A stretch of 54,933 nt of DNA from a virus (Duplodnaviria > Caudoviricetes): positions 1 to 54,933 of IMG/VR virus record IMGVR_UViG_3300046504_000195, one strand, 5' to 3'. Below the pieces are notes generated by a model. It was not told where the DNA came from. It did no database searches and worked only from the letters and a program-made list of their open reading frames with translations. The position numbers and the translations under genes are program-made. This document shows positions 9,931-33,209 of this stretch, piece by piece (positions within the stretch are counted from its first letter, which is position 1; each line of letters opens with the position of its first letter).

Positions 9931-12474
9931 TTAAATACCGGGTAATCCTGTGCTACCACCACCTTTTGGGGGAGCAATTCCCTGACTTTGTTGTTGTTTA
10001 GTTATATAAACTAATTTTCCGGTATTTTGATCTCTTCTTAAAGAACCGCCACCACCTTTAGCATATTGCTGAAGTAGTGCATATTTTTCTTGAGTAGTTG
10101 CTCTATTTGCTGCATCACCAATAACACTCATATAAGGATTCATCAGAATATTCTTAAATGCCTGTTGAAATAATTCCTTAACACCTGCTTCATCATTTGG
10201 ATCAAGTTTTGCTAATTTTTCTGCAACACTAAAACCTAAAATTTCATTTACTGCACCTTCGTTAACCTTTTTTTTGAGCACTACACCTTCAAACAATTTG
10301 AATTGGTTATCAATAACCACATCAAGTTTCTTCAAAGTTGGAGATTTTTTGCTTTCATTAAGACTTTCTTTTCTTACACCTGCCTTAACTTCAAGACGTT
10401 CACGAATATATTTTCTGAGTTTCTTTTCACCCTCAGACATTTGAATATTAACTGCCTTATCGGGAGTTATATTAACATCAACTGTTGTCATTGGAGCACT
10501 TTCAGGTTTAATAGTATCTACACCAAGATTTTGACTATCTGGACCGAATGCAAATTTAGGAGCACCTGCACCAATTCCTGGTTTTTCTTCGCCTGCGTCA
10601 TCCTTTACATCATCAAGATCAACTTCACCCTTTTCAATTTCTTCACCTTCTGGTTCGTCTTCTTCTTTCATTATTTTAACAGGTGCTTTTGTGCTAAGAG
10701 GTTTGCCTTTCTTTTCAGGAACTACTAATTCTTGGATTGCTTGTGGCTGTGGTGGTTGTGTTTCAACATTTGCAACATCCACATTTTCGGCAACTGCAGG
10801 ATTCAATCCTGCAACGCCAGCACCTTTACCAGTAACTTGTTGTGATACTGCTTTTAATATGTTTTTAACATCAATTGGTTGCTGACCTGCTTTAGTTAAT
10901 CTTGTATTTAATGCCTGAATTTGCTGACCTAAATTGGTTGCAATTCCTTGAAGTTTTTTCACTTCACCAGGAACTTCACCTGCATTATATGTTTGTTTAA
11001 TCGCCTGTCCTGCTTGACCAATCTTTTCTGCGCCTGCTTGTGCTACTTGACCAACTGCCTGTGCACCTCTTTGGACTGCGCCACCAACTGCTTGTGCACC
11101 TCTTCCAATTGCGCCACCAACTGCTTGTGCACCTTTTGCAATTCCTCTACCTGCAGCCTTACCTAAAGATTTTAATCCGCCAAAAAGTTCGTTAAGTTTT
11201 GCAACGCCTTCTTCTTGTGAACATTCATTCATTCCATTAACAACTGGTTCGAGTTTATTTGCATAATCTTCATGACCATAATCATTTTTCAATGTATTTA
11301 ATATTTCTGGATTAATAATTTTAATAATCATAGCAACATTATCAATGTCACCATCATTCTGTCCATCATTATGTGCATTTGCATATCCACTTACCATATT
11401 ACCAACTTCTTCTTCACCGCATTCCATAAGTGCTTCTGCACTATCAACGCCCCTTGACTTTGCATATTCAGTAAATGTACCGCATTCTGCGCACTGTGCT
11501 TCAGGAAGTCCAGATGGTCCAAGATCACCCTCTCCGGGTTTTTCCTGTGGTACACTATCTCCCAAATCTGCAACATCTTCAGGTGATACCACTTTAAGAA
11601 TCATATCGGCTACTTCATGTCTGTCTTCATCATCAATTTTTGCCATTTTATTTGCACTGGCATCTTCCTTTTCATCTTTATTTGGTAAAAATCCTTTAAC
11701 GAATGTTTTAAGTAACCAAGTTAATTCACTTGTATCTAAATCAGAACTTTTAATTTCACTTGCTATTTTGCCAACTTTGCTCTGCATGTCACTTAATTCT
11801 TCTTCACCTTCAGGTTTTTCTTCTGTATCTGTAGGTTTTTCTTCGGTATCACTTGCAGGTAGTTCTTCTGTACTATCTGCAGGTAGTTCTTCTGTACTAT
11901 CTGCAGGTAGTTCTGTTGCATCGCCTGCAGGTACTTCTGTTGCATCGCCTGCAGGTGTCTCAGGTCCTGCTTCAGGTCCTGTTGCTGGTTCTGTTTCTAA
12001 TCCTGCTGTCATTTCAGCACTACCTTCAGGTGCTGTTTTTTCTGCTGAAGTTGCTGCATCCAATTCAGGAACTTTACTTGTTGCCTGATCAATTTCTTCT
12101 TTAGCACCTTCGGTTATAACCATTTTAGTTTTAGTCTTATTAGGCTTCAATGTTTTTGCTTCACTGATATCATGAAAAATAAAATTTCTTTGTTTATCTG
12201 CTTCAGATAATGATTGATATTTATAATCCTTAATATTACCTAATCCACCAATGTAAGCAAAATCTGTAACATTAGGGTCTTTTTTAGTACCACCCTTTTT
12301 GATGAAATATTCATGGTTTTCTTTAACTATACCATATGCAACACCGTCTGGTGCTCTCTTATAATCAATAAGAGTGCCTAAGTTACGTATTTGAGATTCT
12401 TTAACTGAGGGTTTTACATCGGCTAACTTATTTAGTCTTTCATAAAATGCCTCTTTAGTTGTATGTTTTGCCAT
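9931..12474 (-). CDS. Large acidic, repeat-containing putative head/internal protein
   Basis: 847 aa with PAGDATE/PADSTEEL and GAQAVGG repeats; late motif at 12517-12525. Confidence 0.7.
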   Translation of the reverse strand: MAKHTTKEAFYERLNKLADVKPSVKESQIRNLGTLIDYKRAPDGVAYGIVKENHEYFIKKGGTKKDPNVTDFAYIGGLGNIKDYKYQSLSEADKQRNFIFHDISEAKTLKPNKTKTKMVITEGAKEEIDQATSKVPELDAATSAEKTAPEGSAEMTAGLETEPATGPEAGPETPAGDATEVPAGDATELPADSTEELPADSTEELPASDTEEKPTDTEEKPEGEEELSDMQSKVGKIASEIKSSDLDTSELTWLLKTFVKGFLPNKDEKEDASANKMAKIDDEDRHEVADMILKVVSPEDVADLGDSVPQEKPGEGDLGPSGLPEAQCAECGTFTEYAKSRGVDSAEALMECGEEEVGNMVSGYANAHNDGQNDGDIDNVAMIIKIINPEILNTLKNDYGHEDYANKLEPVVNGMNECSQEEGVAKLNELFGGLKSLGKAAGRGIAKGAQAVGGAIGRGAQAVGGAVQRGAQAVGQVAQAGAEKIGQAGQAIKQTYNAGEVPGEVKKLQGIATNLGQQIQALNTRLTKAGQQPIDVKNILKAVSQQVTGKGAGVAGLNPAVAENVDVANVETQPPQPQAIQELVVPEKKGKPLSTKAPVKIMKEEDEPEGEEIEKGEVDLDDVKDDAGEEKPGIGAGAPKFAFGPDSQNLGVDTIKPESAPMTTVDVNITPDKAVNIQMSEGEKKLRKYIRERLEVKAGVRKESLNESKKSPTLKKLDVVIDNQFKLFEGVVLKKKVNEGAVNEILGFSVAEKLAKLDPNDEAGVKELFQQAFKNILMNPYMSVIGDAANRATTQEKYALLQQYAKGGGGSLRRDQNTGKLVYITKQQQSQGIAPPKGGGSTGLPGI
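11049..11132 (-). repeat. 33-nt coding tandem repeat (GAQAVGGAxxR)
   Basis: GCGCCACCAACTGCTTGTGCACC repeated. Confidence 0.75.
11853..11955 (-). repeat. 24-nt coding tandem repeats (PADSTEEL / PAGDATEx)
   Basis: TGCAGGTAGTTCTTCTGTACTATC-like units. Confidence 0.8.
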
Positions 12475-19402: not shown

Positions 19403-19560
19403 GGAAAGTCATTGCTTAATTGAAGAATTAAGTTACGTCTGAAAAATCAGAAATGATTCTTTAAATTTTATTGCCAGTTAGTGGTTATGTAAAATTTAAG
19501 ACCTAACTAATTAATTTTTAAAAGGATAGTTGCACCCAAATCATTGGGTGCAATTTTTTT
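19403..19560 (+). ncRNA. Candidate late-expressed structured ncRNA
   Basis: Late motif at 19394-19402, no ORF, several hairpins, possible pseudoknot, terminator at 19528-19560. Confidence 0.5.
19528..19560 (+). terminator. Intrinsic terminator
   Basis: AGTTGCACCCAA-ATCA-TTGGGTGCAATT-TTTTT. Confidence 0.85.
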
Positions 19561-20764
19561 ATAGTGGATATGAATATTCTTCACCAAGATAATTAATCAA
19601 TATAATTTCATTTTTCCTGATTTCTTTTACATAATTAGGCAAAAGTGGAATTTTACCACCACCGCCAGGAGCATCAATAACAAATTGTGGTACTGCATAT
19701 CCACTGGTAAAACCACGAAGTCCTTTGATTATATCTAATCCAACTTGTATGTCAGTACGGAAATGTTCAGAACCGGGAATTGGATCACATTGGTATATAT
19801 AATATGGTCTGACTCTGATCTTCAACAAACCTTTATTAAGTGCTCTGAATATTTCGACACTATCGTTAATTCCTTTTAATAATACACTCTGAGACCCCAA
19901 CGGAATACCAGCATCAGCCAACATATTACATGCTAATTGCACTTCAGGAGTAAGTTCGTCAGGGTGAGTAAAATGTATACTCATGAATAACGGATGATAT
20001 TTCTTTAATATATCTGTTAATTCCTTGGTGATACGCATTGGTAATACTACGGGTATTTTTGTTCCAATACGTATAATCTCTACATGTTCTATACTACGCA
20101 ATCTACAGAGAATGTATTCAATTTGATCATCACGTAATGTCAGAGGATCACCGCCAGAAACAATAACGTCTCGGATTTCAGGATGATCTTTAATGTACTG
20201 AAAACCTGCTTCCCATTCTTTTGTTGAAATATTTATTGATGTTCGTTTAGAAGTCATATGACTTCTTGTGCAATAACGACAATATAATGAGCAAAATCCC
20301 GTAACCAAAAATAATGCACGATCTGGATATCTGTGAACAATATTTGGAACAGGTGAAAACTTCTCCTCATCAAGAGGGTCTTCTTTCTCACCCTCAATTG
20401 AATTTAGTTCATTGACTGTTGGTATAATTGTCTTATATAGAGGATGATCACTTGATAATGTGTCCAATAAGTACACAAAATATGGTGTTATTCTGAAAGG
20501 TAAATGATTTTTTGGCATGTTAATAATAGTACCATTTTTCTTTTTACCCAATACCGTAAGTAATTTTTCAGTATCCGTTATACTATTTTTTATCTGCCAC
20601 TTCCAATCATACCATTCTTCAAGAGTTGTTCTTCTAAAATTTTCGTCAATAAAGAGTTTTAATTTAATTTTTTCGAGCAAGGTATCGTTGTCCTTGCGTT
20701 TCGCAGGATAATCATCACTGCATTCTGTTTCATTTTGAGACTGTTGTGAAATTTGTTCGTTCAT
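19559..20764 (-). CDS. kamA: KamA-family radical SAM aminomutase (lysine 2,3-aminomutase-like)
   Basis: HRYPDR, CSLYCRYCTR, SGGDPL, SQSVLLKGIND, RPYY, DAPGGGGKIP. Confidence 0.9.
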   Translation of the reverse strand: MNEQISQQSQNETECSDDYPAKRKDNDTLLEKIKLKLFIDENFRRTTLEEWYDWKWQIKNSITDTEKLLTVLGKKKNGTIINMPKNHLPFRITPYFVYLLDTLSSDHPLYKTIIPTVNELNSIEGEKEDPLDEEKFSPVPNIVHRYPDRALFLVTGFCSLYCRYCTRSHMTSKRTSINISTKEWEAGFQYIKDHPEIRDVIVSGGDPLTLRDDQIEYILCRLRSIEHVEIIRIGTKIPVVLPMRITKELTDILKKYHPLFMSIHFTHPDELTPEVQLACNMLADAGIPLGSQSVLLKGINDSVEIFRALNKGLLKIRVRPYYIYQCDPIPGSEHFRTDIQVGLDIIKGLRGFTSGYAVPQFVIDAPGGGGKIPLLPNYVKEIRKNEIILINYLGEEYSYPL

Positions 20765-20913
20765 CTATTTTTGGTTTTGTATAAATATGTAGAATACATA
20801 AAAAAGTCGGGCAAAATTACAATTTTTTTAATAAAAAACAACAATAAAAAATAATTATTTTAAACACATTCAAACATACGTTATTATGGAAGTATTTATA
20901 GGAAATTAAAATT

Positions 20914-21240
20914 ATGAAGGCAAAAAAAGATACAAAACAATTACTTTTTGAAAACATGGAGAAACTCAATCCAACTTTTAAAATTCAAGAAGTAGCACCC
21001 ATTGCTGCCACAAGTACTGCAACACAACAATATGGTCAACAACCTGACGTTACATATGCCGATAGCACATATAAAACAATTGCACCTGCATTAAAACAGA
21101 TCAATACTCCTGAAAAATTTGCTGGAGCATTCAAAGGTTGGTTTCAATACTTGGGATATTCACCACAAGCAGGTAACATGAGCATTCAAAGAGCCAGAAT
21201 GGATGTTGAAAATGCTTTGAAAGGATTGGGTTATAAATAA
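20914..21240 (+). CDS. Hypothetical protein with shared N-terminal motif
   Basis: MKAKKDTKQLLFENMEKLNPTFK; late motif at 20892-20900. Confidence 0.75.
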   Translation: MKAKKDTKQLLFENMEKLNPTFKIQEVAPIAATSTATQQYGQQPDVTYADSTYKTIAPALKQINTPEKFAGAFKGWFQYLGYSPQAGNMSIQRARMDVENALKGLGYK

Positions 21241-21275
21241 AAAATTAAGTTTTTTGAAAAATAATTTGCATTTTG

Positions 21276-21306
21276 TTTGTATTTATAATTTTAATGCATA
21301 TATTTG
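21276..21306 (+). promoter_or_regulatory. Bacteroidota-type sigmaA promoter, tRNA array 1
   Basis: TTTG-N19-TATATTTG. Confidence 0.75.
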
Positions 21307-21338
21307 CACCGTGTAGTTAAACATTTTTAAAGTAGAAG

Positions 21339-21413
21339 ATGATGAAAAATTTCTTACATATCCAGCCCCAACCACAACATCCGCAAGATGCTGAATGGGA
21401 AAGATATGCTTGA
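21339..21413 (+). CDS. Leader peptide 1 (MMKNFLHIQPQPQHPQDAEWERYA)
   Basis: 9 of codons 7-16 are His/Gln/Pro; lies between promoter and terminator upstream of Pro/His/Gln tRNAs. Confidence 0.8.
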   Translation: MMKNFLHIQPQPQHPQDAEWERYA

Positions 21414-21451
21414 AACTTTCATCGAAGTTGGAAAGAATTAAGTTAAACATG

Positions 21452-21479
21452 AACCCCATTCGCAAGAGTGGGGTTTTTT
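21452..21479 (+). terminator. Attenuator terminator 1
   Basis: AACCCCATTC-GCAA-GAGTGGGGTT-TTTT; 5' arm also pairs with GAATGGG at 21393-21399. Confidence 0.85.
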
Positions 21480-21494
21480 CGTTCTTTAATATAT

Positions 21495-21589
21495 CAGGGG
21501 TTGATCGAGTTGGTTGAAGATGCTGGTCTTGGAAGCCAGTGACGGCACAAAGGTAGTGTCGTCCGTGGGTTCGAACCCCACACCCCTGA
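21495..21589 (+). tRNA. tRNA-Pro(TGG) with long variable arm
   Basis: CAGGGGT/ACCCCTG-A; loop CTTGGAA; ~25-nt extra arm. Confidence 0.85.
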
Positions 21590-21595
21590 CAATAA

Positions 21596-21670
21596 CTGGG
21601 TGTTCCGCAGATGGCTATACGGGCGTGTTCCGGAGACACGTGTTCGCAGGTTCAAATCCTGCCATCCAGA
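21596..21670 (+). tRNA. tRNA-Pro(CGG), C33
   Basis: CTGGGTG/CATCCAG; loop TCCGGAG. Confidence 0.85.
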
Positions 21671-21676
21671 CAACAT

Positions 21677-21752
21677 GGTGAAGGTAGTTCAATGGTAGAA
21701 TTCCAGATTGTGGTTCTGGTAGTTGCGGGTTCGAGTCCCGTCCTTCACCCCA
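21677..21752 (+). tRNA. tRNA-His(GTG)
   Basis: G-1, 8-bp acceptor stem, loop TTGTGGT, CCA. Confidence 0.93.
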
Positions 21753-21838
21753 AAATATCGTCAGAAAATACGATAATTTGAAAATATCGTGTGTAGATAG
21801 CATAAACAGTATTTATGCATTAAAAGCACGATAAATTT

Positions 21839-21914
21839 CGGGATGTGGTGTAGTTGGTAACATGCGTGCTTTGGGAGCATGAGACCGTGGGTTCGAGTCC
21901 CGCCATCCCGACCA
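21839..21914 (+). tRNA. tRNA-Pro(TGG)
   Basis: CGGGATG/CATCCCG-ACCA; loop TTTGGGA. Confidence 0.95.
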
Positions 21915-21917
21915 TAT

Positions 21918-21993
21918 GGTGATTGTAGAGGAATTGGTAGACTCTCCTGACTGTGAATCAGGAATCTTGCGGGTTCGAGTCCCGTCTTTCACC
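21918..21993 (+). tRNA. tRNA-His(GTG), second copy
   Basis: Loop CTGTGAA; two acceptor-stem mismatches. Confidence 0.8.
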
Positions 21994-22007
21994 CAAATAT
22001 TGACGTT

Positions 22008-22148
22008 ATGAGAAAAGGTAACAAACAAAATGCTTTCCTTAATGGCGAATGGGCAGCACACATGCGTAAATGGGGTAAATTTTTCACCGCCAAGGCACGT
22101 AGAACTGTCGATAAAAAAGTTATCAGGGAAGAACTTAAAAATGCATGA
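22008..22148 (+). CDS. Small basic hypothetical protein (46 aa)
   Basis: MRKGNKQNAFLNGEWAAHMRKWGK... between tRNAs. Confidence 0.55.
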   Translation: MRKGNKQNAFLNGEWAAHMRKWGKFFTAKARRTVDKKVIREELKNA

Positions 22149-22192
22149 TAAAATAATGTGATATTTTAAATTATCACGCATTTAAGTGATAT

Positions 22193-22265
22193 TGTCTTAT
22201 GGTGTAATTGGCAACACGTTTGACTCTGAATCAAAAGAGTGGGGGTTCGAAACCCTCTAAGACAA
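22193..22265 (+). tRNA. tRNA-Gln(CTG)
   Basis: TGTCTTA/TAAGACA; loop CTCTGAA. Confidence 0.9.
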
Positions 22266-22316
22266 CAATAGATTTTTTGCAATAAGTACTGAAAAACGGT
22301 CCTTTGCGCAAAATAT

Positions 22317-22399
22317 TGCCCTCTGGCAGAATGGTTATTGCATCGGTCTTTGAAGCCGACACTCATCAGGGTTTGTGGGTTCGAGTCCCACGGGGGCGA
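22317..22399 (+). tRNA. tRNA-Gln(TTG) with long variable arm
   Basis: Loop CTTTGAA; ~15-nt extra arm. Confidence 0.8.
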
Positions 22400-22414
22400 C
22401 AATGAAATTTATAT

Positions 22415-22488
22415 TGTCCTTTGGTGTAATTGGTTAACACATCTGATTTTGATTCAGGCGAGTGTAGGTTCGAGTCCTACAAGGACAA
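22415..22488 (+). tRNA. tRNA-Gln(TTG)
   Basis: TGTCCTT/AAGGACA; loop TTTTGAT. Confidence 0.9.
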
Positions 22489-23175
22489 CTAATTTATAAT
22501 TTTGATTCTTTGAGGATCAAAAACCATTCTAACTGTTGATTTGGTCACACCACCTTGATAACTATCAAGAACTCCAAGTACATCTACAATATCATAACCC
22601 AATTGTTGTGCAATTACTGCCAGATCATCTGTTGTAAGTTTAGTTCCATTTCCGGTGATTGTATCTTGAAACATTTGTAAATATTTATCAATTGTACCAT
22701 CATCAATACCATCATCATTCAATGCTTTTCTCACAGCATCAATACGAATTCCTCTGAATTTTTCACCATGCGCAGGAACTTGTAGTATTTTACCACTATC
22801 ATCTATATTGACTTTGATTGTGTTTGGAATTGATTCCTGATAATCAAATGCTCTTTTATCGTTTGCATATGTATTTGCAACACCATAATTGTCTGTAAAA
22901 AATATTGGTTTTTTAAACGGCATTCTACCATGCAGAGTTCCGGCATCTTTTAAAAGTTCAAAATATAATTTTTCGTCACCTGCTTCTCTTGCTTTCTGCA
23001 TTCCTGCCTGCAATTCGTTCCATTTTTGAGGATCAGTAATATAAGTTGCAGTACTGGTCCTTGGAACAAAATTACCTGCCTTTTTAACATCTCTGATATC
23101 AGGAGTACCATGATACCAAACCTTGTTTTGGACCACTTCAGCAATTACCTCATTTATAATATTGACAATATTCAT
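22489..23175 (-). CDS. Possible ADP-ribosyltransferase-like protein
   Basis: WYHGT, IFFTDN..VA.TYA, GYD, VFDPQRIK resemble phage ART-like domains. Confidence 0.5.
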   Translation of the reverse strand: MNIVNIINEVIAEVVQNKVWYHGTPDIRDVKKAGNFVPRTSTATYITDPQKWNELQAGMQKAREAGDEKLYFELLKDAGTLHGRMPFKKPIFFTDNYGVANTYANDKRAFDYQESIPNTIKVNIDDSGKILQVPAHGEKFRGIRIDAVRKALNDDGIDDGTIDKYLQMFQDTITGNGTKLTTDDLAVIAQQLGYDIVDVLGVLDSYQGGVTKSTVRMVFDPQRIKIIN

Positions 23176-23193
23176 ATAAATAAATACTAAAAT

Positions 23194-23224
23194 TTGTAAC
23201 ATATTGTATTTATTTTCGTATAAT
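23194..23224 (+). promoter_or_regulatory. ECF-like promoter (2 mismatches)
   Basis: TTGTAACATAT-N10-TTCGTATAAT. Confidence 0.6.
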
Positions 23225-23242
23225 TGCACAAACAAATTAACA

Positions 23243-23626
23243 ATGGGATACAAATTATTTCTTGACGATTTCCGTGAGCCACGTGATGCATTCTTTTATA
23301 AAGGGTTTCCAATATATAATGAGGATGATTGGACTGTCGTGCGTAATTATTCGGAATTCGTTAAAGTAATTGAAGAACTTGGAATTCCTGAAGCAGTTAG
23401 TTTTGACCATGATTTGGCAGATGTTCATTATGAAAAATCGTCATTCAATTATGACGATGAAAATTTGGAAAAGACCGGATATCATTGTGCCAAATGGTTG
23501 ATCTATTATTGTATTGACAACAAAAAAGAACTTCCTGCAATCATTTTAGTTCATTCAATGAATACTGCAGGAAGTCAGAATATTTGGTCATTATTTAATA
23601 GTTATTGGAAATCACTTAAAATGTAA
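23243..23626 (+). CDS. Cyclic-phosphate-processing receiver-like domain protein
   Basis: LFLDD.R.P, VRNY.EF, SFDHDL, TGY.CAKWL, VHSMN. Confidence 0.75.
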   Translation: MGYKLFLDDFREPRDAFFYKGFPIYNEDDWTVVRNYSEFVKVIEELGIPEAVSFDHDLADVHYEKSSFNYDDENLEKTGYHCAKWLIYYCIDNKKELPAIILVHSMNTAGSQNIWSLFNSYWKSLKM

Positions 23627-23629
23627 TTA

Positions 23630-24103
23630 TTATGAGATGGGTTTATCATTAATAATATCTTTATTTTCCAAAATATTGGGTTTTTTATTTTCTAAGTCTT
23701 TGAGTCTCTGATCTTCTAAATCTCTAAGTCTCTGATCATGATCCAAAAGTTTCTTATGAATTATAATTAACTCCAAACTAATGCTTTTTACTTCTAATTT
23801 TAATTCCTTGATTTCAACTTTTGTTTCTTTCATTTCAATTCGTAATTCTTTAATGTCTCTCTTGATTTCCAAAATGGCTTCCATAACAGCATCCATTTTA
23901 AGATGAAAAGAGGCATTATTATCAATAAGAATTTCAGCCAAGAAACGTTGATTTTCACTGAGTTTATCCTTTAAATAACCAATAACACCATCAAATTCTC
24001 TTTTAATAAACTGACGATCTCCGCCAGTAAGTGTTATACCCGACATGCCCTTTTCTGACATAGTTGGTTGCTCAATTAATTCTTGTACTGTCTTTTTTGC
24101 CAT
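23630..24103 (-). CDS. Coiled-coil hypothetical protein
   Basis: Heptad-rich C-terminal half. Confidence 0.7.
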   Translation of the reverse strand: MAKKTVQELIEQPTMSEKGMSGITLTGGDRQFIKREFDGVIGYLKDKLSENQRFLAEILIDNNASFHLKMDAVMEAILEIKRDIKELRIEMKETKVEIKELKLEVKSISLELIIIHKKLLDHDQRLRDLEDQRLKDLENKKPNILENKDIINDKPIS

Positions 24104-24157
24104 TTTGTTTAATTACTTTAATGTTGTAGATATGCTTTATACTATCTACTGATGGTA

Positions 24158-24529
24158 TTATTTGTTGTTTTTTTTTAATTCTTCAATAAAATTATCTAAA
24201 TCTTGTTTTGTTGCTAATCTATTGTTTCTAATAAAATTAGTTACAGCATTTGTAAGATTTTCCTGGCTTCTTTGCACTTGATTTACTTTACCTTCAAGTA
24301 CTGCCAAGCCATTTAATTTCAACAGTATTGAATCTCTGATAACTCTGTCTTGCTGTTGATTCTGAATTACAGTCTCAACTTTATCCTTGACAATAACTGC
24401 ACTGCTATCTTTCTTGGTAAAGTAAGCACTTACAAGCCAAATACTTGCAGCAAAACCAAAGACTGCAGAAAAAGTCACCATGACTTTAAATGCTTTTTTA
24501 AATGTACCATTTGTTGTACCTGTTGTCAT
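24158..24529 (-). CDS. Membrane-anchored coiled-coil protein
   Basis: N-terminal TM helix. Confidence 0.65.
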   Translation of the reverse strand: MTTGTTNGTFKKAFKVMVTFSAVFGFAASIWLVSAYFTKKDSSAVIVKDKVETVIQNQQQDRVIRDSILLKLNGLAVLEGKVNQVQRSQENLTNAVTNFIRNNRLATKQDLDNFIEELKKNNK

Positions 24530-24628
24530 TTTGAAATTTTATGTTAAACTATTCAATAATAAATAGTCAAATATTTCATAAAATAACACAAATTTTAGTG
24601 ATTATTATCATAACATAAAATTACTCAA

Positions 24629-25720
24629 TTATCTTCTTGTACCTGAAGTTCTTGAAGAACTTGAACCACCAGAATTTGAACCACTACCCGAACTTCTGTT
24701 GGCACTACCGGAATTATATGAACCACTTGAATAGTTAGAACTTCTATTAACATTGCCAGAATTATAACTTCTTGATGGCTGTGAATATGTTGAACTTCTT
24801 GAAGGTACAGAATAATTGCGTGATTGAGTACTTCTTTGATTATTTGATTGAATATAAGTACGTCTTTCCGTATTTGCCTGAGTACGTGATTGAGTATTTA
24901 CTTGAGACCTTCTATTCAATATGTTATTATCAATACGTGAATTATTATATTGAGGTCTTGTATTCATACGTGGATTATTGTAGGAAGGTTGATATGACCT
25001 TCTGTTTGCTTGATACGTTGCTTTTGTTTGTGGTTGGACCACACGTCTATTAATATTTGATGAACTTTCTTGACGAATATGTGCATATCCATGATTACTA
25101 TTATATCCATTACCACCATTATTCCAATTATGATTGTGAGTATACCAATTATGATTGCCGGACCAATTATGATTATGTCTCCAAGGACTCCAATTAGAAT
25201 ACCACCAATTATTGAATCCGAAACCAAAACCGAAATCATTATAATACCAAGGATTCCAGAATGAACTTCCCATGAATCCATATTCCCAATTCCAATTATC
25301 CATCATCCAATAGTTATTATAAAACCAAGGGTCTGAATACATCCAATAATTAAAACCGCCATGATAGAACCTTCCAATATTATATGAGTATAAAAAAGGG
25401 TCGTATTCATAATAATTAACATTGATATTAGGATTTTCTTTTACGAGTGTATCTACGATTGCTCTTAACGTGTCTTCAGTATTAACTCTTTTGTGTTTTT
25501 TGATTTTTTGAGCATCTTTATTTGGTTGATAATACAAATCATCATATTCAGGTTTTACTGAAGTAATTTGATTTTCTGTTGCATTATTACTTGAAGTCAT
25601 TTGACTTTTTGTAATCGAGTCTTCCCTGGCTTGCCAATATTTTTCATAATTGGATATTTTCTGTGCTGATAATGTGAACGTTAAAAGCACAAGTACGATT
25701 GATAATAGTAGTTTTTTCAT
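24629..25720 (-). CDS. Secreted Bacteroidota-like low-complexity protein
   Basis: Signal peptide MKKLLLSIVLVLLTFTLSAQ, YDDLYY motif, W/Y/G-rich middle, S/R/N-rich tail. Confidence 0.7.
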   Translation of the reverse strand: MKKLLLSIVLVLLTFTLSAQKISNYEKYWQAREDSITKSQMTSSNNATENQITSVKPEYDDLYYQPNKDAQKIKKHKRVNTEDTLRAIVDTLVKENPNINVNYYEYDPFLYSYNIGRFYHGGFNYWMYSDPWFYNNYWMMDNWNWEYGFMGSSFWNPWYYNDFGFGFGFNNWWYSNWSPWRHNHNWSGNHNWYTHNHNWNNGGNGYNSNHGYAHIRQESSSNINRRVVQPQTKATYQANRRSYQPSYNNPRMNTRPQYNNSRIDNNILNRRSQVNTQSRTQANTERRTYIQSNNQRSTQSRNYSVPSRSSTYSQPSRSYNSGNVNRSSNYSSGSYNSGSANRSSGSGSNSGGSSSSRTSGTRR

Positions 25721-25806
25721 TTTTATATATATTATATGTATATAAATAGCAATATTCATACCAAAGTTTTTCTATCTTTAAGGTGTATTTATAAGAAATT
25801 CAAATT

Positions 25807-26739
25807 ATGAAGGCAAAAAAAGATACTAAGCAATTGTTATTTGAAAACATGGCTAAATTAAACCCAACCTTTAAGCCAAAATTAAATGAAGATATGGGTT
25901 ATAGTTATGAACCACCAATGTTAAAATCACAACCAAATGATTCTTACAAAAAAATAATGAGTGATTTTCCTGGTCATGCTAAAAGTGCTAATCCAATTGA
26001 TTCTCCACAATATAAATGGTATCAACGTGTATCGAAGTTTATTCAAGGTAATAATAATGTAAATGAAAAGGCAGAATTAGTTAAATTTTTTCAAAACAAT
26101 TTTTTGGGTATGGATTATGACATACTTCAAACACCTGCAGAAACTGTGAGTTGGTGGTTATCTCCCGAACAACAAGAATTTATAAAAGATGAAATGAATA
26201 CTCCAAAAGACAGTAATGATGATTTAAACGAAGATAGTGAATTTCAAGAAAAAATTAAAAATGGTGATGTTTGGTTAGATTACTATGCACCTTCAGATAG
26301 TGAAGAATATACCGATGGACAATTTTGGTATAATAGAAGTGGTCAGGCAATGAGAGACCCTGAAGAATATAATCCACATAGTGATGGATATACACCATTT
26401 GGTGATGAAAGTGTGGTTAAGGAATCTCCTATGTTTGGTGGAGAAAAGGTATCGCAGGATCAATATGATGAACTTCAATACGATAAAGCCAATATGGAAA
26501 AAGCAATGGGTGATGCATTCAAAACACCTGAAGGTTATCAAATGAAACATCCTGCAAATCCTGGTGAAACCATTCAATTAAAAGATGGTGATAATGTATT
26601 AGTGAAAAGTATAGATCAAGCAACTGGAAATATTAACGTGAGATTATTTTTTAATGATAAAGATGCAATAAAATTCTCACCAAAAGGATATGCTGATGTT
26701 AGTTGGAGTCCGGTACAATTCGATACAATTGTTGGTTAG
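25807..26739 (+). CDS. Hypothetical protein with shared N-terminal motif
   Basis: MKAKKDTKQLLFENMAKLNPTFKPKLNE; late motif at 25785-25793. Confidence 0.75.
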   Translation: MKAKKDTKQLLFENMAKLNPTFKPKLNEDMGYSYEPPMLKSQPNDSYKKIMSDFPGHAKSANPIDSPQYKWYQRVSKFIQGNNNVNEKAELVKFFQNNFLGMDYDILQTPAETVSWWLSPEQQEFIKDEMNTPKDSNDDLNEDSEFQEKIKNGDVWLDYYAPSDSEEYTDGQFWYNRSGQAMRDPEEYNPHSDGYTPFGDESVVKESPMFGGEKVSQDQYDELQYDKANMEKAMGDAFKTPEGYQMKHPANPGETIQLKDGDNVLVKSIDQATGNINVRLFFNDKDAIKFSPKGYADVSWSPVQFDTIVG

Positions 26740-26785
26740 ATTTATTTAGAATCCGTATAAATAATATTACAATACTTTTTGACTT

Positions 26786-27064
26786 ATGAAAAAAGATAGT
26801 AGAGAAAGACTTTTCGAAGTCATGCAAAGGGTTGATAAAACATTCAAACCTAAATTGAATGAAGACTTCGGTGAAGAAAAAGAACTTGTTGTTTCGGAAG
26901 ATATAAATATTGATGTAGAAGTGGGTGACACTATTATGATGGGCAGATTTAAAAATTCGCCAACAGTAGTAAAGTCAATAGGAAAAGACGAACATGGTAT
27001 GCCAATTATTAACGGTAAGAAAGTAGTAACATTTAGAAAGGCTACTGAAAAAAATAAAAAATAA
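26786..27064 (+). CDS. Hypothetical protein with shared N-terminal motif
   Basis: RERLFEVMQRVDKTFKPKLNE. Confidence 0.75.
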   Translation: MKKDSRERLFEVMQRVDKTFKPKLNEDFGEEKELVVSEDINIDVEVGDTIMMGRFKNSPTVVKSIGKDEHGMPIINGKKVVTFRKATEKNKK

Positions 27065-27096
27065 TTTAAATTTTTTTAAAAATAATTGAAAAAATA

Positions 27097-27126
27097 TTTG
27101 GAATTAAGAAAACTTTATTATCTTTG
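27097..27126 (+). promoter_or_regulatory. Bacteroidota-type promoter, tRNA array 2
   Basis: TTTG-N18-TATCTTTG. Confidence 0.75.
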
Positions 27127-27170
27127 CCGAGTATTTAATTGAAAGAAACAACGAATTTAATAACAAAACA

Positions 27171-27263
27171 ATGAAAAGGTTATTCGACATATTGGTAGCA
27201 GTCCTCATGGTGGATGTCCTATTATGGGCAGCCGAAGAGGATAAGTTATGCACTGTCGGGTAA
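27171..27263 (+). CDS. Leader peptide 2 (MKRLFDILVAVLMVDVLLWAAEEDKLCTVG)
   Basis: 17 of codons 6-24 are D/E/L/V/A/W. Confidence 0.8.
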   Translation: MKRLFDILVAVLMVDVLLWAAEEDKLCTVG

Positions 27264-27295
27264 TACTTGAATATTACACTCCTTTCTTTTACAAG

Positions 27296-27332
27296 AAAAA
27301 AACCCGACTACTCATAACAGTCGGGTTTTTTT
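27296..27332 (+). terminator. Attenuator terminator 2
   Basis: AACCCGACT...AGTCGGGTT-TTTTT; 5' arm also pairs with GTCGGGT at 27255-27261. Confidence 0.85.
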
Positions 27333-27348
27333 ATGCAAGAAAGGAGAG

Positions 27349-27360
27349 GTTCTTTGACAT
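27349..27360 (+). promoter_or_regulatory. boxA-like element
   Basis: GTTCTTTGACAT just before the first tRNA. Confidence 0.55.
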
Positions 27361-27372
27361 GTTGGAAATTTC

Positions 27373-27442
27373 GAGGTCGTAGTTTAATGGTTAGAATATC
27401 GCACTGTCTATGCGAGGAAGGGGTTCGAATCCCACGGCTTCG
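27373..27442 (+). tRNA. tRNA-Asp(GTC)
   Basis: GAGGTCG/CGGCTTC-G; loop CTGTCTA. Confidence 0.85.
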
Positions 27443-27504
27443 GCATACTTGTTTATTTGATATTTATTTATTATTTTTGTCGAACACTAAGTATTTATAT
27501 TTAA

Positions 27505-28155
27505 ATGACAGACATGAATAAAATAATATTGGAAAAAACAATAAAAGAATCTATATCATTTTCTGACGTATCGAGAAAGATATATGGAAATAATTTATGT
27601 GGTAATAGACAAACAATAAAAAAATATGTGAAACAATATAATATAGATATTTCACATTTCATTCAAATACCGCAAAAACATAATTTTCGTTCTAAAAGAG
27701 AACTTTCCGAAATATTGGTGGAGCATTCGATTTTTGATACAACAAATTTAAAAAATCGTTTATATTATGAAGGATTAAAAAAACGAATTTGTGAAAAATG
27801 TGGACAAGACGAAAATTGGCACGGTGAACACATAAGTTTAATTCTTGATCATATTAATGGTATAAATGATGATTTAAGAATAGAAAATTTAAGAATACTT
27901 TGTCCTAATTGTAACGCAACATTACCCACACATGGTGGCAAAAACGTAAAGCATAAATCAAAAGAAAAAATAAATAAACTTAGAAATTCTCAAAAAGTAT
28001 CTATGTCTCAACGAAAAGTAATGCGTCCACCACATGAACAACTTCAAAACGAAATAAATGAATTAGGATTTACAGGAACTGGAAAAAAATATGGTGTAAG
28101 TGATAATGCAATAAGAAAATGGATTAAATTTTATAATAAACATACACTCTCGTAG
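27505..28155 (+). CDS. HNH endonuclease (free-standing, homing-type)
   Basis: CEKC..LILDHINGINDDLRIENLRILCPNC; C-terminal HTH. Confidence 0.88.
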   Translation: MTDMNKIILEKTIKESISFSDVSRKIYGNNLCGNRQTIKKYVKQYNIDISHFIQIPQKHNFRSKRELSEILVEHSIFDTTNLKNRLYYEGLKKRICEKCGQDENWHGEHISLILDHINGINDDLRIENLRILCPNCNATLPTHGGKNVKHKSKEKINKLRNSQKVSMSQRKVMRPPHEQLQNEINELGFTGTGKKYGVSDNAIRKWIKFYNKHTLS

Positions 28156-28220
28156 GCTTCTTGGTGAAGAACTTGGCTGTCACCCATGTAAAACAGACGG
28201 ATCGTAACCGTTCGGGAGTG
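28146..28220 (+). tRNA. tRNA-Asp(GTC), atypical T loop
   Basis: ACTCTCG/CGGGAGT-G; loop CTGTCAC; T loop ATCGTAA. Confidence 0.7.
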
Positions 28221-28227
28221 CAAAAAT

Positions 28228-28299
28228 GCTCGGTTCTTCTAATGGTCCGGAAAGTAGACTCTCAATCTACGAATAGCAGTTCGATTCTGCTACCGAGTA
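28228..28299 (+). tRNA. tRNA-Glu(CTC)
   Basis: GCTCGGT/ACCGAGT; loop CTCTCAA. Confidence 0.9.
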
Positions 28300-28307
28300 C
28301 AAAAAAT

Positions 28308-28390
28308 GCTGCGTTATACAAGTCCGGTTAAAGTAGGCAGACCTTCAAACTGTCCCGAAAGGTTCGTGGGTTCGAATCCCACACGCAGTA
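28308..28390 (+). tRNA. tRNA-Glu(TTC), long variable arm, C33
   Basis: GCTGCGT/ACGCAGT; loop CCTTCAA; arm CCCGAAAGG. Confidence 0.75.
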
Positions 28391-28395
28391 CAAAA

Positions 28396-28493
28396 TGAAT
28401 CGAAACAACGGCAAGGTACAGCCAAGAGTACAGGATGGTAATGCTTGAAGATATACGAAAACCGCCTTCAAGTTCGAGTGTTTCGATTCACCA
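28396..28493 (+). ncRNA. Structured ncRNA candidate ending in CCA
   Basis: 12-bp TGAATCGAAACA/TGTTTCGATTCA stem followed by CCA; inner CTTGAAG/CTTCAAG hairpin. Confidence 0.5.
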
Positions 28494-28495
28494 AT

Positions 28496-28567
28496 GCTCG
28501 GTTCGTATAAAGGTTAGTACCTAAGACCTTCAATCTTAGTATACGGGTTCGACTCCCGTACCGAGTA
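28496..28567 (+). tRNA. tRNA-Glu(TTC), C33
   Basis: GCTCGGT/ACCGAGT; loop CCTTCAA. Confidence 0.88.
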
Positions 28568-28637
28568 CAAAAAATGTTGCTTTTATTAATCATTATCGTT
28601 ATATTTGCCCAATAATGATTATTAAATCCATCAAATT

Positions 28638-29321
28638 ATGAAAATACTTATTTTAGGTGACGGACTATTGGGATCAGAAATAGTCAAACAAATGGGTTGG
28701 GATTATCTCTCAGTCAACAAAGACGGAATTGATGTCTTAAATGATTTTGGCGGATTTGTGAGTAAGGTATATGAATTTCATCCAACAGTAATAATAAATT
28801 GCATTGGATATACAAAGACATACGATACTGAAAGGCAACATCATTGGGATTTAAACTATGGATTTGTAGTAAAACTTGTAGATATGTGCAATGATTTCGG
28901 ATATAAATTAGTGCATATTTCAACAGATTACATTTACGCCAATAGTAAAAATAAAAAATCTGAAAAAGATATTCCTGTTCATCAGGAAACTTGGTACTCA
29001 TATTGCAAATTAATTTCAGATGCATACGTGCAATTAAAAGCAAGAGATTATCTGATGTTCAGATGTTCATTTAAACCTAAACCCTTTCCATATGAAAAAG
29101 CATTTGTAAATATCATGGGAAATTTTGATTATGTCGATGTTTTGGCAAAACAAATGATTGCCTTAATTATTGAAGAAAGAACAGGCGTTTGGAATATCGG
29201 TACAGAATTTAAATCAGTATATGAATTGGCAATTCAAACACGACAAGTAGTAGATTTTTCTTATTCAAATCAATTGCCAATCATTGAAATGGACCTCAGT
29301 AAATTCAATAATAGAGTATGA
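28638..29321 (+). CDS. RmlD-like NAD(P)-dependent sugar-nucleotide reductase
   Basis: ILILGDGLLG, IINCIG, VHISTDYIY, YSYCK; TATATTTG promoter at 28600. Confidence 0.8.
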   Translation: MKILILGDGLLGSEIVKQMGWDYLSVNKDGIDVLNDFGGFVSKVYEFHPTVIINCIGYTKTYDTERQHHWDLNYGFVVKLVDMCNDFGYKLVHISTDYIYANSKNKKSEKDIPVHQETWYSYCKLISDAYVQLKARDYLMFRCSFKPKPFPYEKAFVNIMGNFDYVDVLAKQMIALIIEERTGVWNIGTEFKSVYELAIQTRQVVDFSYSNQLPIIEMDLSKFNNRV

Positions 29322-29728
29322 GAGAAATTAAACGAAGAAGAAACTGTAAAAATTGTGATAAAAAATTAATTAGAACCGACAACATTTATTGTAATATCGG
29401 ATGCTATCAGGAATATCAATTTAAAAACAAATATCTTCCATTATTTTATCTTGGAGAAATAAGAGAAAATAAAACATTAAGAAAAATACTTATATATCTC
29501 TATGGTAATAAATGTTCTGAGTGCCCTTGTGAGTCTATTTGGAATGGAAAGCCATTAGTTATGCAAGTAGATCATAAGGATGGCAATTCCGATAATAACA
29601 TGCCAGAAAATGTAAGATTGCTCTGTCCCAATTGTCACACTCAAACTCCAACGTTTTGTGCTGGTGACAATAAACAAACAAGAAGAAATAAATATCTTAG
29701 AAAATATAAAAATAGTATGCTCCTTTAG
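29318..29728 (+). CDS. HNH endonuclease
   Basis: MQVDHKDGNSDNNMPENVRLLCPNCH. Confidence 0.88.
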   Translation: MREIKRRRNCKNCDKKLIRTDNIYCNIGCYQEYQFKNKYLPLFYLGEIRENKTLRKILIYLYGNKCSECPCESIWNGKPLVMQVDHKDGNSDNNMPENVRLLCPNCHTQTPTFCAGDNKQTRRNKYLRKYKNSMLL

Positions 29729-29796
29729 TTCAGTTGGTTCAGAATATCTGCCTTACAAGCAGAGGGTCATTGGTTCGAATCCAATAGGGAGCACCA
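29719..29796 (+). tRNA. tRNA-Val(TAC)
   Basis: GCTCCTT/AGGGAGC-ACCA; loop CTTACAA. Confidence 0.93.
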
Positions 29797-29800
29797 AAAT

Positions 29801-29886
29801 GGGAAGATAGTGTAACTGGATAAACATCCCACTCCTACAAAGTGGAGACGAGAAGTATAATCAGGGTTCGAGTCCCTGTCATCCCA
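29801..29886 (+). tRNA. tRNA-Val(TAC), long variable region, C33
   Basis: Stem CCACT/AGTGG; loop CCTACAA; 16-nt extra region. Confidence 0.75.
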
Positions 29887-29889
29887 CAA

Positions 29890-29966
29890 TGGGTCGTAAG
29901 TTGTGTTGGTTAATTGCCAAATCGGTGTTATAACCGATAAAACGCCAATATCGGCTCTACGACCTA
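29890..29966 (+). ncRNA. Structured spacer RNA candidate
   Basis: TGGGTCGTA/TACGACCTA, GTGTTGG/CCAATAT, ATCGGT/ACCGAT. Confidence 0.4.
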
Positions 29967-29974
29967 TAATTTAA

Positions 29975-30056
29975 CCTCAAGTGGTGGAATTGGTAGACAC
30001 GTGCGTTTAAGAGGCGCATGCCGAAAGGTTTGCGAGTTCGATTCTCGCCTTGAGGA
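29975..30056 (+). tRNA. tRNA-Leu(AAG)
   Basis: CCTCAAG/CTTGAGG; stem TGCGT/GCGCA; loop TTAAGAG; long arm. Confidence 0.85.
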
Positions 30057-30061
30057 CAATT

Positions 30062-30145
30062 GCGGATGTGGCTAATAGAGAATGGCAGATCGTCCTGGCT
30101 TAGAACCAGGAAACCTTGTAGGTTCGAGTCCTATCATCCGCACCA
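30062..30145 (+). tRNA. tRNA-Leu(TAG), short variable arm, odd D arm
   Basis: GCGGATG/CATCCGC-ACCA; loop CTTAGAA. Confidence 0.8.
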
Positions 30146-30146
30146 T

Positions 30147-30221
30147 GTGGACATGCCGGAACTGGTATACGGGTTGGTCTCAGACACCAATTTTTTGTGG
30201 GTTCGACTCCCATTGTCCACA
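30147..30221 (+). tRNA. tRNA-Leu(CAG), short variable arm
   Basis: GTGGACA/TGTCCAC; loop CTCAGAC. Confidence 0.85.
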
Positions 30222-30262
30222 CAAAGGTGAATGTTGTTACTTTTTGCAGGAGTAGCACCACC

Positions 30263-30358
30263 TGTGCCGAATAACTTGTAGAGGGAGAAGTAGTACTTTC
30301 AAATACATCATGTATCTGCAACATCTGATGATGGTTGAGTTATTAAAAAGGCACACCA
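30263..30358 (+). ncRNA. Structured ncRNA candidate ending in CCA
   Basis: Nested stems TGTGCC/GGCACA-CCA, AATAACTT/GAGTTATT, TTGTAGA/TCTGCAA. Confidence 0.45.
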
Positions 30359-30359
30359 C

Positions 30360-30433
30360 GGGGTCGTGGCATAATTGGCTATTGCACCTGCCTTGCACGC
30401 AGGGGACTGAGGGTTCGAGTCCCTTCGACTCCA
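30360..30433 (+). tRNA. tRNA-Ala(TGC)
   Basis: GGGGTCG/CGACTCC with G3:U70; loop CTTGCAC. Confidence 0.93.
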
Positions 30434-30513
30434 CAAAAAATACTCCATATGGTTTGAAAGTCCATTCAAGGGTATCAGTTATAATATTCACTGACTGCTA
30501 TCTGGGAGAACAC

Positions 30514-30586
30514 GGGGCAGTGGTGACAAAGGCTAACACGGCAGACCTGCAATCTGTAGATGAGGGTTCGATTCCCTTCTGCTCCA
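30514..30586 (+). tRNA. tRNA-Ala(TGC), C33
   Basis: GGGGCAG/CTGCTCC with G3:U70; loop CCTGCAA. Confidence 0.9.
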
Positions 30587-30670
30587 CGAGAATTTGGTTT
30601 TGGTTATTTCCGTCAACCTTGCAATAAGAACGTCAAAAACTACGGTATAAATTCTTTCCAAATTCATCAT

Positions 30671-30744
30671 GGCACTGTACTCCAATCGGCAGAGGGGACA
30701 GACTTAAAACCTGTAAAGTGTGGGTTCGAATCCCACCAGTGCTA
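30671..30744 (+). tRNA. tRNA-Leu(TAA), short variable arm
   Basis: GGCACTG/CAGTGCT; loop CTTAAAA. Confidence 0.85.
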
Positions 30745-30752
30745 CAAAATAT

Positions 30753-30835
30753 ACGTCAGTGACCGAGTGGCTGAAGGTGATGGTCTCCAAAACCATTTGC
30801 GAAAGCACACGTGGGTTCGAATCCTACCTGGCGTG
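30753..30835 (+). tRNA. tRNA-Trp(CCA) with long variable arm
   Basis: ACGTCAG/CTGGCGT-G; loop CTCCAAA; arm TGCGAAAGCA. Confidence 0.85.
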
Positions 30836-30840
30836 CAAAA

Positions 30841-30972
30841 TGAAGTGATAGTAAAAATCGCAGGTATGTACTGCAGGTTGGCGTTCAGTCCAAATGAACT
30901 AAGTGTACAACGACCACTGAGGGCAGAAATGTTCCCAAGAGCAATATCAGTTAGCAGTACACTACCACTTCA
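30841..30972 (+). ncRNA. Multibranched structured ncRNA candidate
   Basis: TGAAGTG/CACTTCA, TGTACTGC/GCAGTACA, GTTCA/TGAAC, ACTGA/TCAGT, TGTTC/GAGCA. Confidence 0.5.
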
Positions 30973-31022
30973 GAAAGTTCCTAATATTTCCAAATTATTA
31001 CTAATTTAGGAATAATTAGTAA

Positions 31023-31280
31023 TTGTTAGTATTAACTTTAATAAGAAAGGAGTACATCTTCAAAATCAAATTCAGGTATCGCAGAACATTGTGGTGGAAA
31101 TTCGTACATTACAATTACTTCCACAAGAAACTCTTCAAAGAATATTATATTCAAAGGAGAAGAAAACCATTTAGTGACAGAGAAATCCAAAAATACGAAC
31201 TCTATAAGAAACTTGATGATTTGATTACATTAAGACGTGTTGATTGGTTACGAGAATTTATTTGGAGATTAGAACCATAA
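31023..31280 (+). CDS. Hypothetical basic protein
   Basis: ORF only; start uncertain. Confidence 0.4.
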   Translation: MLVLTLIRKEYIFKIKFRYRRTLWWKFVHYNYFHKKLFKEYYIQRRRKPFSDREIQKYELYKKLDDLITLRRVDWLREFIWRLEP

Positions 31281-31282
31281 AT

Positions 31283-31313
31283 TTGTAACATTTCCGGAAT
31301 TCATACGTATAAT
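31283..31313 (+). promoter_or_regulatory. ECF-like promoter
   Basis: TTGTAACATTT-N10-TACGTATAAT. Confidence 0.7.
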
Positions 31314-31338
31314 ATGTATTTATTGTAAATTTATAAAT

Positions 31339-31764: not shown

Positions 31765-31805
31765 AACTTGTTAATCTCCCGATAAAAAGTTAATTTTGAT
31801 CCGTT

Positions 31806-32999: not shown

Positions 33000-33000
33000 T

Positions 33001-33195: not shown

Positions 33196-33209
33196 TTCTT
33201 TAAAATATT

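Follow-up and report, generated by a model that had tools for sequence, protein, structure and literature searches.

A predicted multivalent leader-peptide attenuator ahead of the Pro/His/Gln tRNA operon of a phage tRNA region

The window, as the DNA analysed here is called below, comprises all 54,933 bases of an IMG/VR virus record. The record is rated 17% complete, which implies that it is only part of a jumbo-phage genome of about 300 kb. It is AT-rich (GC about 0.30-0.39) and carries, on the + strand only, 45 tRNA genes and a tmRNA gene as detected with ARAGORN and Rfam, the tRNA genes being blocked by amino acid. A cmscan search of the whole window against Rfam returned 46 matches, all of them tRNA or tmRNA. 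No close relative was found in the GenBank phage collection, where 93 records match the window in tRNA-sized pieces only. The DNA is present in peat and wetland metagenome runs, one of which (run X1) contains 0.90 of its words.

Rfam and ARAGORN disagree on the tRNA genes at 28308-28390, 30062-30142 and 41421-41533, and also at 21495-21590 and 22317-22400, where a tRNA was either missed by ARAGORN or given other borders. One tRNA match is 113 nt long, and unusual lengths also occur among the Pro (96 nt) and Gln (84 nt) genes, which suggests that the overlong tRNAs contain insertions or introns. A tRNA-like gene in the fourth operon (49542-49612), between tRNA-Ile and tRNA-Ser, has a four-base anticodon according to ARAGORN and a weak Rfam tRNA match of 34.3 bits. 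The phage-encoded tmRNA gene (33082-33564; 104.6 bits in Rfam, with a tag peptide read by ARAGORN) lies within the tRNA region 3' of operon 2. Two HNH endonuclease genes (27505-28155 and 29318-29728, by Pfam) are inserted among the tRNA genes of that operon, and similar open reading frames (ORFs) occur in the arrays of relatives.

The window contains four tRNA operons, each of which is preceded by a promoter motif, a small ORF and a terminator. The first operon (21495-22489, + strand) consists of eight tRNA genes in the order Pro(UGG), Pro(CGG), His(GUG), Pro(UGG), His(GUG), Gln(CUG), Gln(UUG) and Gln(UUG). The ARAGORN calls thus bear out an earlier sequence-only reading of this DNA, which had described an array of three Pro, two His and three Gln tRNAs and nothing else. 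Seven of the eight genes also reach the Rfam gathering score, while Pro(CGG) at 21596-21671 is called by ARAGORN only. An RNA run available as contigs only (X24) covers 21809-21997, which holds two of the tRNAs, and 22200-22233; the leader region is not covered. The unit is flanked by genes for a lysine-2,3-aminomutase-like radical SAM protein (19559-20764, - strand) and for a protein with a cyclic-phosphate-processing receiver domain (23204-23626, + strand), as identified with Pfam, two families linked to translation-factor modification and RNA repair. Three further ORFs (20914-21240, 25807-26739 and 26786-27064) resemble one another in an N-terminal stretch and are without a Pfam match; two of them terminate immediately 5' of the promoters that precede leaders 1 and 2.

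Ahead of the Pro/His/Gln array, a pattern scan found a promoter-like site at 21276-21306 on the + strand (TTTG, a spacer, then TAnnTTTG), a motif of the type described for Bacteroidota promoters; the transcript would probably start near 21312-21316. The same scan of the window gave 10 sites against 6.4 expected, with no overall enrichment, and four of these 10 lie directly 5' of the four leader ORFs (at 21276, 27097, 40803 and 48657). The site before the first operon is followed by a leader ORF of 24 codons with an ATG start and a TGA stop (21339-21413, + strand). Its codons 7-16 (21357-21386), hereafter the control codons, read His, Ile, Gln, Pro, Gln, Pro, Gln, His, Pro, Gln, comprising four Gln, three Pro, two His and one Ile. 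The sequence-only reading had placed a leader with His, Gln and Pro codons here, and nine of the ten codons agree with it. The control codons in use are CAT, CAG, CCC, CAA, CCA and CCG. Over the whole leader, His, Gln and Pro account for 9 of 23 residues (background 0.092), and the other 14 fall outside the set supplied by the array. Enrichment as high as this is found in 2 of the 313 small ORFs of the window, leader 1 itself counted.

Between the leader and the array lies an intrinsic terminator (21451-21479, + strand), identified by a terminator scan and by RNAalifold, with a 5' arm (segment 3) at 21451-21461, a 3' arm (segment 4) at 21466-21476 and a T-run extending to 21479. This 11-pair hairpin with its 4-nt loop, located where the earlier reading had put a terminator, ranks at the top of the terminator-like sites listed for 20000-36500, and its 48-nt fold has an energy of -17.5 kcal/mol. 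The first tRNA begins just 15 nt past the T-run, which implies that the array can be transcribed only through the terminator; the pattern scan found no promoter motif between the two. In a peat metagenome run (X2), one contig matches both flanks and omits the 143 bases 21309-21451; it may come from a relative with a different or absent leader between promoter and terminator.

Intergenic terminators are common and the upstream gene (20914-21240) needs an end, so that the hairpin could be a constitutive terminator or insulator of that gene next to a small ORF present by chance, with the tRNAs arising from leak-through or from another promoter. The overall count of promoter motifs in the window, being no higher than chance, would fit such an account. 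However, the terminator lies 210 nt beyond the stop codon of the upstream gene and behind a promoter motif, the space between it and the first tRNA offers neither room nor motif for a promoter, and the ORF, with a coding signature, is conserved in 41 relatives described below. A match between leaders and arrays as good as that reported below would moreover arise by chance about once in 24 for the window alone and once in 720 for one of its relatives. We consider this explanation highly improbable.

The leader RNA is predicted to have alternative pairings. Segment 1, the 5' strand of a protector helix identified from folds (21357-21370, + strand), lies inside the control codons, with codons 10-12 as the partners of segment 2. 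The segment 2 region (21393-21408, + strand), delimited by complementarity and folds, has two parts: the first, 21393-21399, has alternative partners in segment 1 and in the terminator's 5' arm, and the second, 21403-21408, closes the outer protector stem. In the minimum-energy fold of 21315-21490, a long hairpin spans the ORF (21341-21423) and is followed by the terminator, with z = -4.05 and none of 200 shuffles as stable. This fold pairs 21357-21362 with 21403-21408 and 21367-21370 with 21396-21399, and so recovers the protector proposed from the letters alone (CATATC/GATATG with an inner CCCA/TGGG). The proposed antiterminator also holds, since GAATGGG at 21393-21399 is the exact reverse complement of CCCATTC at 21455-21461 in the 5' arm of the terminator. 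An exact 7-nt complement to the terminator arm within the 135 nt upstream occurred in 1.1% of 2000 shuffles (p 0.011). A spacer hairpin (21408-21443, + strand) predicted to fold inside the antiterminator stem holds the leader stop codon (21411-21413). The stretch 21388-21463 folds at -16.9 kcal/mol, and a hairpin is found at this place in the three relatives folded, in one of them (L072) with a different sequence.

We modelled how a translating ribosome would influence these pairings by masking a footprint from -18 to +12 relative to the A site on leader 1 of the window. With the A site at codons 3-14, all seven pairs that join segments 2 and 3 are in place while the terminator's 3' arm has yet to be made; this number drops to six at codon 15, to three at codon 16, and to zero from codon 17 to the stop codon. 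Nine of the ten control codons are therefore placed such that a stall would leave segment 2 free in this model. When folding was treated as an equilibrium, the terminator of attenuator 1 was favoured at every ribosome position, which implies that the switch has to be kinetic, as in classical attenuators.

To look for relatives of this element, we scanned IMG/VR with a pattern composed of segments 2, 3 and 4 only, without the leader codons. The scan yielded 51 loci, comprising 49 with a His/Gln/Pro leader (one with a shifted stop codon), one with a Lys-rich leader and one false match in a long ORF. The Lys-rich leader, in a 372-kb genome (L010), uses the same RNA backbone and stands before four tRNA-Lys genes. 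In 53 of the 58 rows examined (a number that counts duplicates, the window, and six loci found via neighbouring proteins) a tRNA array begins within 840 nt, the first tRNA being Pro in 51 rows, Arg in one and Lys in one. The remaining five rows are the false match and four rows with less than 100 nt of downstream DNA. The converse scan, using the leader codons only, gave 40 loci, 36 of which were already in the structural set, an overlap indicating that leader and switch travel together. An alignment of 41 distinct orthologues shows joint conservation of the leader ORF with its His/Gln/Pro codons, of segment 2 and of the terminator, before Pro/His/Gln arrays.

Across this family, variation in the control codons is mostly synonymous. 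Among the leaders with 24 codons, of which there are 31, CCA, CCC, CCG and CCT all occur in the core Pro columns and CAA and CAG in the Gln columns, while columns 9-15 show few amino-acid changes, with three of the five types of change remaining within His/Gln/Pro. The amino acid changes freely in columns 5, 6, 17, 18, 22 and 24, and hardly any change is seen across the 41 sequences in segment 2 and in part of the spacer. Segment 2 is kept in a relative in which the reading frame over it differs (L074) and in another in which the leader stop codon overlaps it (L011). Judged from these sequences, the constraint 3' of the control codons is on the RNA rather than on the peptide.

Where an added tRNA-Arg(ACG) heads the array (L050), a CGC codon has been gained at the start of the control run of the leader. 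In the arrays of L006, L034 and L042, tRNA-His was not detected by ARAGORN or Rfam, yet the leaders keep a His codon. A supposed joint loss of the core His codon and tRNA-His in L052 was dropped, as Rfam and a relaxed ARAGORN search found tRNA-His(GUG) in L052, L039 and L007. The sequence-only reading had proposed that the leader codons sample the anticodons supplied downstream; this stands at the level of amino acids and is weaker for the single codon and anticodon, as relatives with only Pro(UGG) still use CCG. Three relatives (L005, where it occupies 5975-6150 on the - strand, L006 and L007) also carry a conserved structured element with its own terminator directly 5' of the leader promoter (fold z -6.78). 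This element, a candidate small RNA, belongs to no Rfam family and does not occur in the window.

The predicted switch was also examined by folding each of the 41 sequences. In 40 of the 41, segment 2 is paired upstream in silico, in the protector, before the terminator has been made. When segment 1 was removed, segments 2 and 3 paired in all 41 folds, a result that is partly one of ascertainment, since 37 rows were found by the pattern that fixes segments 2-4 and their complementarity is partly built in. On average over the 41 sequences, the antiterminator fold has an energy of -19.0 kcal/mol and the terminator fold -18.4 kcal/mol. RNAalifold on the 41 leaders recovered the terminator as consensus and nothing else. 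The helices are nearly invariant within this orthologous family, with one compensatory pair between segments 2 and 3 (a T-A to C-G change in L072) and none between segments 1 and 2. Beyond this single case, covariation within the family was dropped as support, such covariation being almost absent. A Fisher-combined p of 2e-30 over 21 units was likewise set aside as inflated, because the units are homologous and were preselected for a complement of at least 6 nt.

A leader that is translated and senses codons could also have a non-classical output, such as a response of reversed sign in which a stall would bring about termination, an effect on RNA processing or stability, or an action of the terminated leader RNA or of the peptide in trans. 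In the masking model, a stall at codon 16 or later does mask segment 2. There is also a precedent in Sinorhizobium trpL, whose terminated leader is reported to function as a small RNA and whose leader peptide is reported to act in trans. These possibilities sit poorly with the position of nine of the ten control codons where a stall would free segment 2. A peptide acting in trans is further opposed by the C-terminal half of the leader, which is not conserved as a peptide, and a function in trans has no need for a terminator 15 nt before the array. We judge a non-classical output to be quite unlikely.

The other three operons of the window are preceded by sister units, all on the + strand. Attenuator 2 (27171-27325; ORF 27171-27263, terminator hairpin 27303-27325) precedes Asp, Glu, Val, Leu, Ala and Trp tRNAs, followed by Leu and Met. 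Attenuator 3 (40874-41020; ORF 40874-40966, hairpin 41001-41020) precedes Lys and Tyr tRNAs, and attenuator 4 (48755-48932; ORF 48755-48886, hairpin 48913-48932) precedes Thr, Cys, Ile, Ser, Phe, Gly, Asn and Arg tRNAs. Each leader is enriched for the amino acids of its own array. For leader 2 these make up 20 of 29 residues (Asp/Glu/Val/Leu/Ala/Trp; background 0.338), or 21 of 29 with z 4.4 under the composition-blind rule described below, for leader 3 they make up 10 of 29 (Lys/Tyr; background 0.132, z 2.8), and for leader 4 they account for 33 of 42 (Thr/Cys/Ile/Ser/Phe/Gly/Asn/Arg; background 0.414, z 4.6). Per leader, only one to three of the 313 small ORFs in the window are equally enriched for its set, the leader itself counted. 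Each sister unit has its own segment 2 and segment 3 sequences, which are mutually complementary each time over 6-11 nt. The terminator of unit 3 does not adjoin the first tRNA; the roughly 140 nt between them (41021-41164) contain a short A-rich motif in about five copies, and this part of the unit is conserved in a relative (G003).

To pair leaders with arrays without regard to composition, we used a rule that applies to terminators with a tRNA within the next 900 nt and selects the longest ORF with an ATG start, a length of 15-60 codons and an end 10-100 nt ahead of the terminator; candidates with empty arrays (one each in G002 and G001) were left out. An earlier version that required an exact complement had missed 4 of 25 units, its terminator finder being too strict. 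In the window, the rule picks exactly the four leader ORFs, leader 1 included, and their real assignment to the arrays is the best of 24 permutations, in line with the four matches mentioned in the sequence-only reading. We extended the comparison to five relatives with complete genomes of 327-372 kb and 36-59 tRNA matches each, four of which have the operon order and leaders of the window. In six genomes (the window, these four relatives, and the fifth relative, G001, with other tRNA groupings) the rule gave 25 leader/array pairs, all with positive own-set z (1.7 to 6.3), and the real assignment ranked first among 24 permutations in the window, among 24, 24, 6 and 24 in the four relatives, and among 720 in G001. 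Applied to the tRNA-rich regions of three Proteobacteria phages, the same rule returned no candidate leaders.

In G001, a 372-kb phage, the groups are Ser/Arg/Trp, Asp/Gly/Tyr/Met/Pro/Ala, Asn/His/Thr, Lys, Leu/Cys and Gln/Phe/Arg/Val, and its six leaders fit their own groups with own-set z of 1.7-5.4. The design recurs with further groups, for example Phe/His/Lys, Arg/Ser, Glu/Tyr, Ile/Gly/Ala, Pro/Asp and Gln, in the GenBank phages LR756502.1 (642 kb) and LR745206.1 (635 kb). In the 146-kb genome of Cellulophaga phage phi4:1, which is in culture with its host Cellulophaga baltica, at least three units are present (9566-9690, about 10526-10665 and 12272-12415 of locus L078). One of these, standing before Pro, Glu, Gln, His, Leu, Leu and Arg tRNAs, has a leader in which 11 residues in a row all belong to this very set. 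A second phi4:1 leader, apparently with a non-ATG start, was missed by the rule and was read by eye. At this place the annotated 'hypothetical protein' gp075 (10490-10609 of locus L078) overlaps a promoter motif and is followed by a terminator and an Ala-to-Met tRNA block; the true product is more probably a leader peptide that is shorter than annotated, begins at a non-ATG codon and serves the next tRNA block.

The relatives also carry tRNAs with a CUA anticodon, at the distal ends of the arrays of G002-G005. In G001 (L068-L071) there are two, together with one UUA tRNA; the window ends before the corresponding place. These tRNAs hint at stop-codon read-through or reassignment.

A conditional terminator might respond to some other signal, for instance a protein or small RNA bound to segment 2 or the spacer, or the leader might report general translation capacity. 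The near-invariance of segment 2 and part of the spacer would suit a binding site as well, as would the retention of segment 2 where the peptide frame changes. Neither version explains why leaders match the amino acids of their own arrays in at least four independent groupings, or why the control codons vary synonymously. The paralogous units, moreover, differ in their segment 2 and 3 sequences and are complementary every time, which argues for RNA-RNA pairing and against a common protein site. We regard another signal as unlikely, although less so than the alternatives discussed above.

All the comparative tests that were run, namely the conservation of the complete set of parts in 41 relatives, the synonymous variation, the masking model and the matching leaders in other lineages, support the attenuator interpretation that had been proposed from the window alone. 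We consider it likely that the element is a multivalent, ribosome-mediated (leader-peptide) transcription attenuator with feedback on tRNA supply, a reading that draws on sequence comparison and modelling. From the same material we infer that the ORF is translated, that termination is conditional and that the response has the sign described next.

In the proposed mechanism, transcription would begin at the promoter near 21306, and a ribosome would translate the 24-codon leader behind the advancing RNA polymerase. When His, Gln and Pro codons are decoded fast, the ribosome would reach the end of the ORF and cover 21393-21399, the terminator (21451-21476) would form, and transcription would stop 15 nt before the first tRNA. 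When charged tRNA for any of the control codons is scarce, the ribosome would stall in codons 7-15, holding segment 1 and leaving segment 2 free. Free segment 2 would then pair with the emerging 5' arm of the terminator, no terminator would form, and the eight Pro/His/Gln tRNA genes would be transcribed. If the leader is not translated at all, both the protector (1:2) and the terminator (3:4) would form and transcription would stop. Such a circuit would amount to negative feedback on exactly the tRNAs produced, with four circuits in the window, one per tRNA operon. As the tRNA product relieves the signal, each operon would act as a homeostat of the tRNAs that it encodes. Lack of an amino acid would likewise lead to read-through, though extra tRNA is no help then.

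Leader-peptide attenuators are well known in enterobacteria, where those of ilvGMEDA, ilvBN and thr are multivalent and those of his and trp are further examples. The phage element shares with them a short leader with clustered control codons, the 1:2, 2:3 and 3:4 pairings, and a terminator just before the first regulated gene. It would also share the selection of the hairpin by the position of the ribosome and, with the multivalent ones, the sensing of several amino acids by a single leader. In silico, attenuator 1 has the structural parts of this family (an ORF with clustered codons, terminator, antiterminator, protector and masking geometry). It falls outside the classical scope, in which the regulated genes make or charge the sensed amino acid, as the genes downstream are eight tRNA genes. 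Unlike the ilv, thr, his and trp leaders, it would thus regulate tRNA genes and not enzymes, and a single phage genome has four to seven units of this kind, which would each be matched to the operon that follows, with up to 8 amino acids per leader.

The closest counterpart among genes of the translation apparatus is the pheM leader of E. coli pheST, an attenuator of an aminoacyl-tRNA synthetase gene. In both cases leader-peptide attenuation would govern a component of that apparatus in response to the level of charged tRNA. However, pheM senses one amino acid and controls a synthetase, whereas the product of the phage unit is the tRNA itself, which would give direct feedback on abundance. T-box elements, which are typical of Firmicutes, bind uncharged tRNA through a specifier codon and the T-box sequence and need no ribosome. 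The phage element would share with them a conditional terminator that lies ahead of genes with a role in translation and answers to the state of a particular tRNA, but it has an ORF with many codons. The cmscan of the whole window gave no match at the gathering score to the Rfam leader families (His, Trp, Leu, Thr) or to the T-box.

Among the matches listed by our full-text literature searches, no paper was found that connects leader peptides or attenuation with tRNA genes or phage tRNA arrays, and neither term was present in those on jumbo and huge phages. If our reading holds, this would be the first case of leader-peptide attenuation of tRNA genes, and a widespread one, in genomes from 146 kb to 642 kb that include a cultured phage.

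To our knowledge, the way in which phages control the tRNA genes they carry, and the reason why these are kept in ordered arrays, are largely unexplained. If attenuation is at work here, tRNA supply would be under direct codon-by-codon feedback, a logic that we did not find described for any tRNA gene in these searches. The leader would then provide a sequence rule predicting which tRNAs share a transcription unit, and small 'hypothetical proteins' such as gp075 of phi4:1 would be re-annotated as leader peptides. The leaders would also constitute a natural family of multi-input codon sensors and would suggest a built-in sensor for tRNA-targeting host defences. As the design is present in a cultured phage-host pair, it can be tested at the bench now.

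More broadly, we lean towards the view, with less confidence than for the element itself, that large Bacteroidota phages run their whole tRNA complement as demand-sensing homeostats, in which a per-operon leader 'barcode' of the codons served co-evolves with operon content. If true, this would explain why phage tRNA genes are grouped by amino acid. The use of such a system may be to match tRNA supply to the codon demand of the phage, or to respond to selective tRNA loss in infection, and homeostats of this kind would give an operon-by-operon answer to such loss, whether it is caused by host anticodon nucleases or by the phage's own host shut-off.
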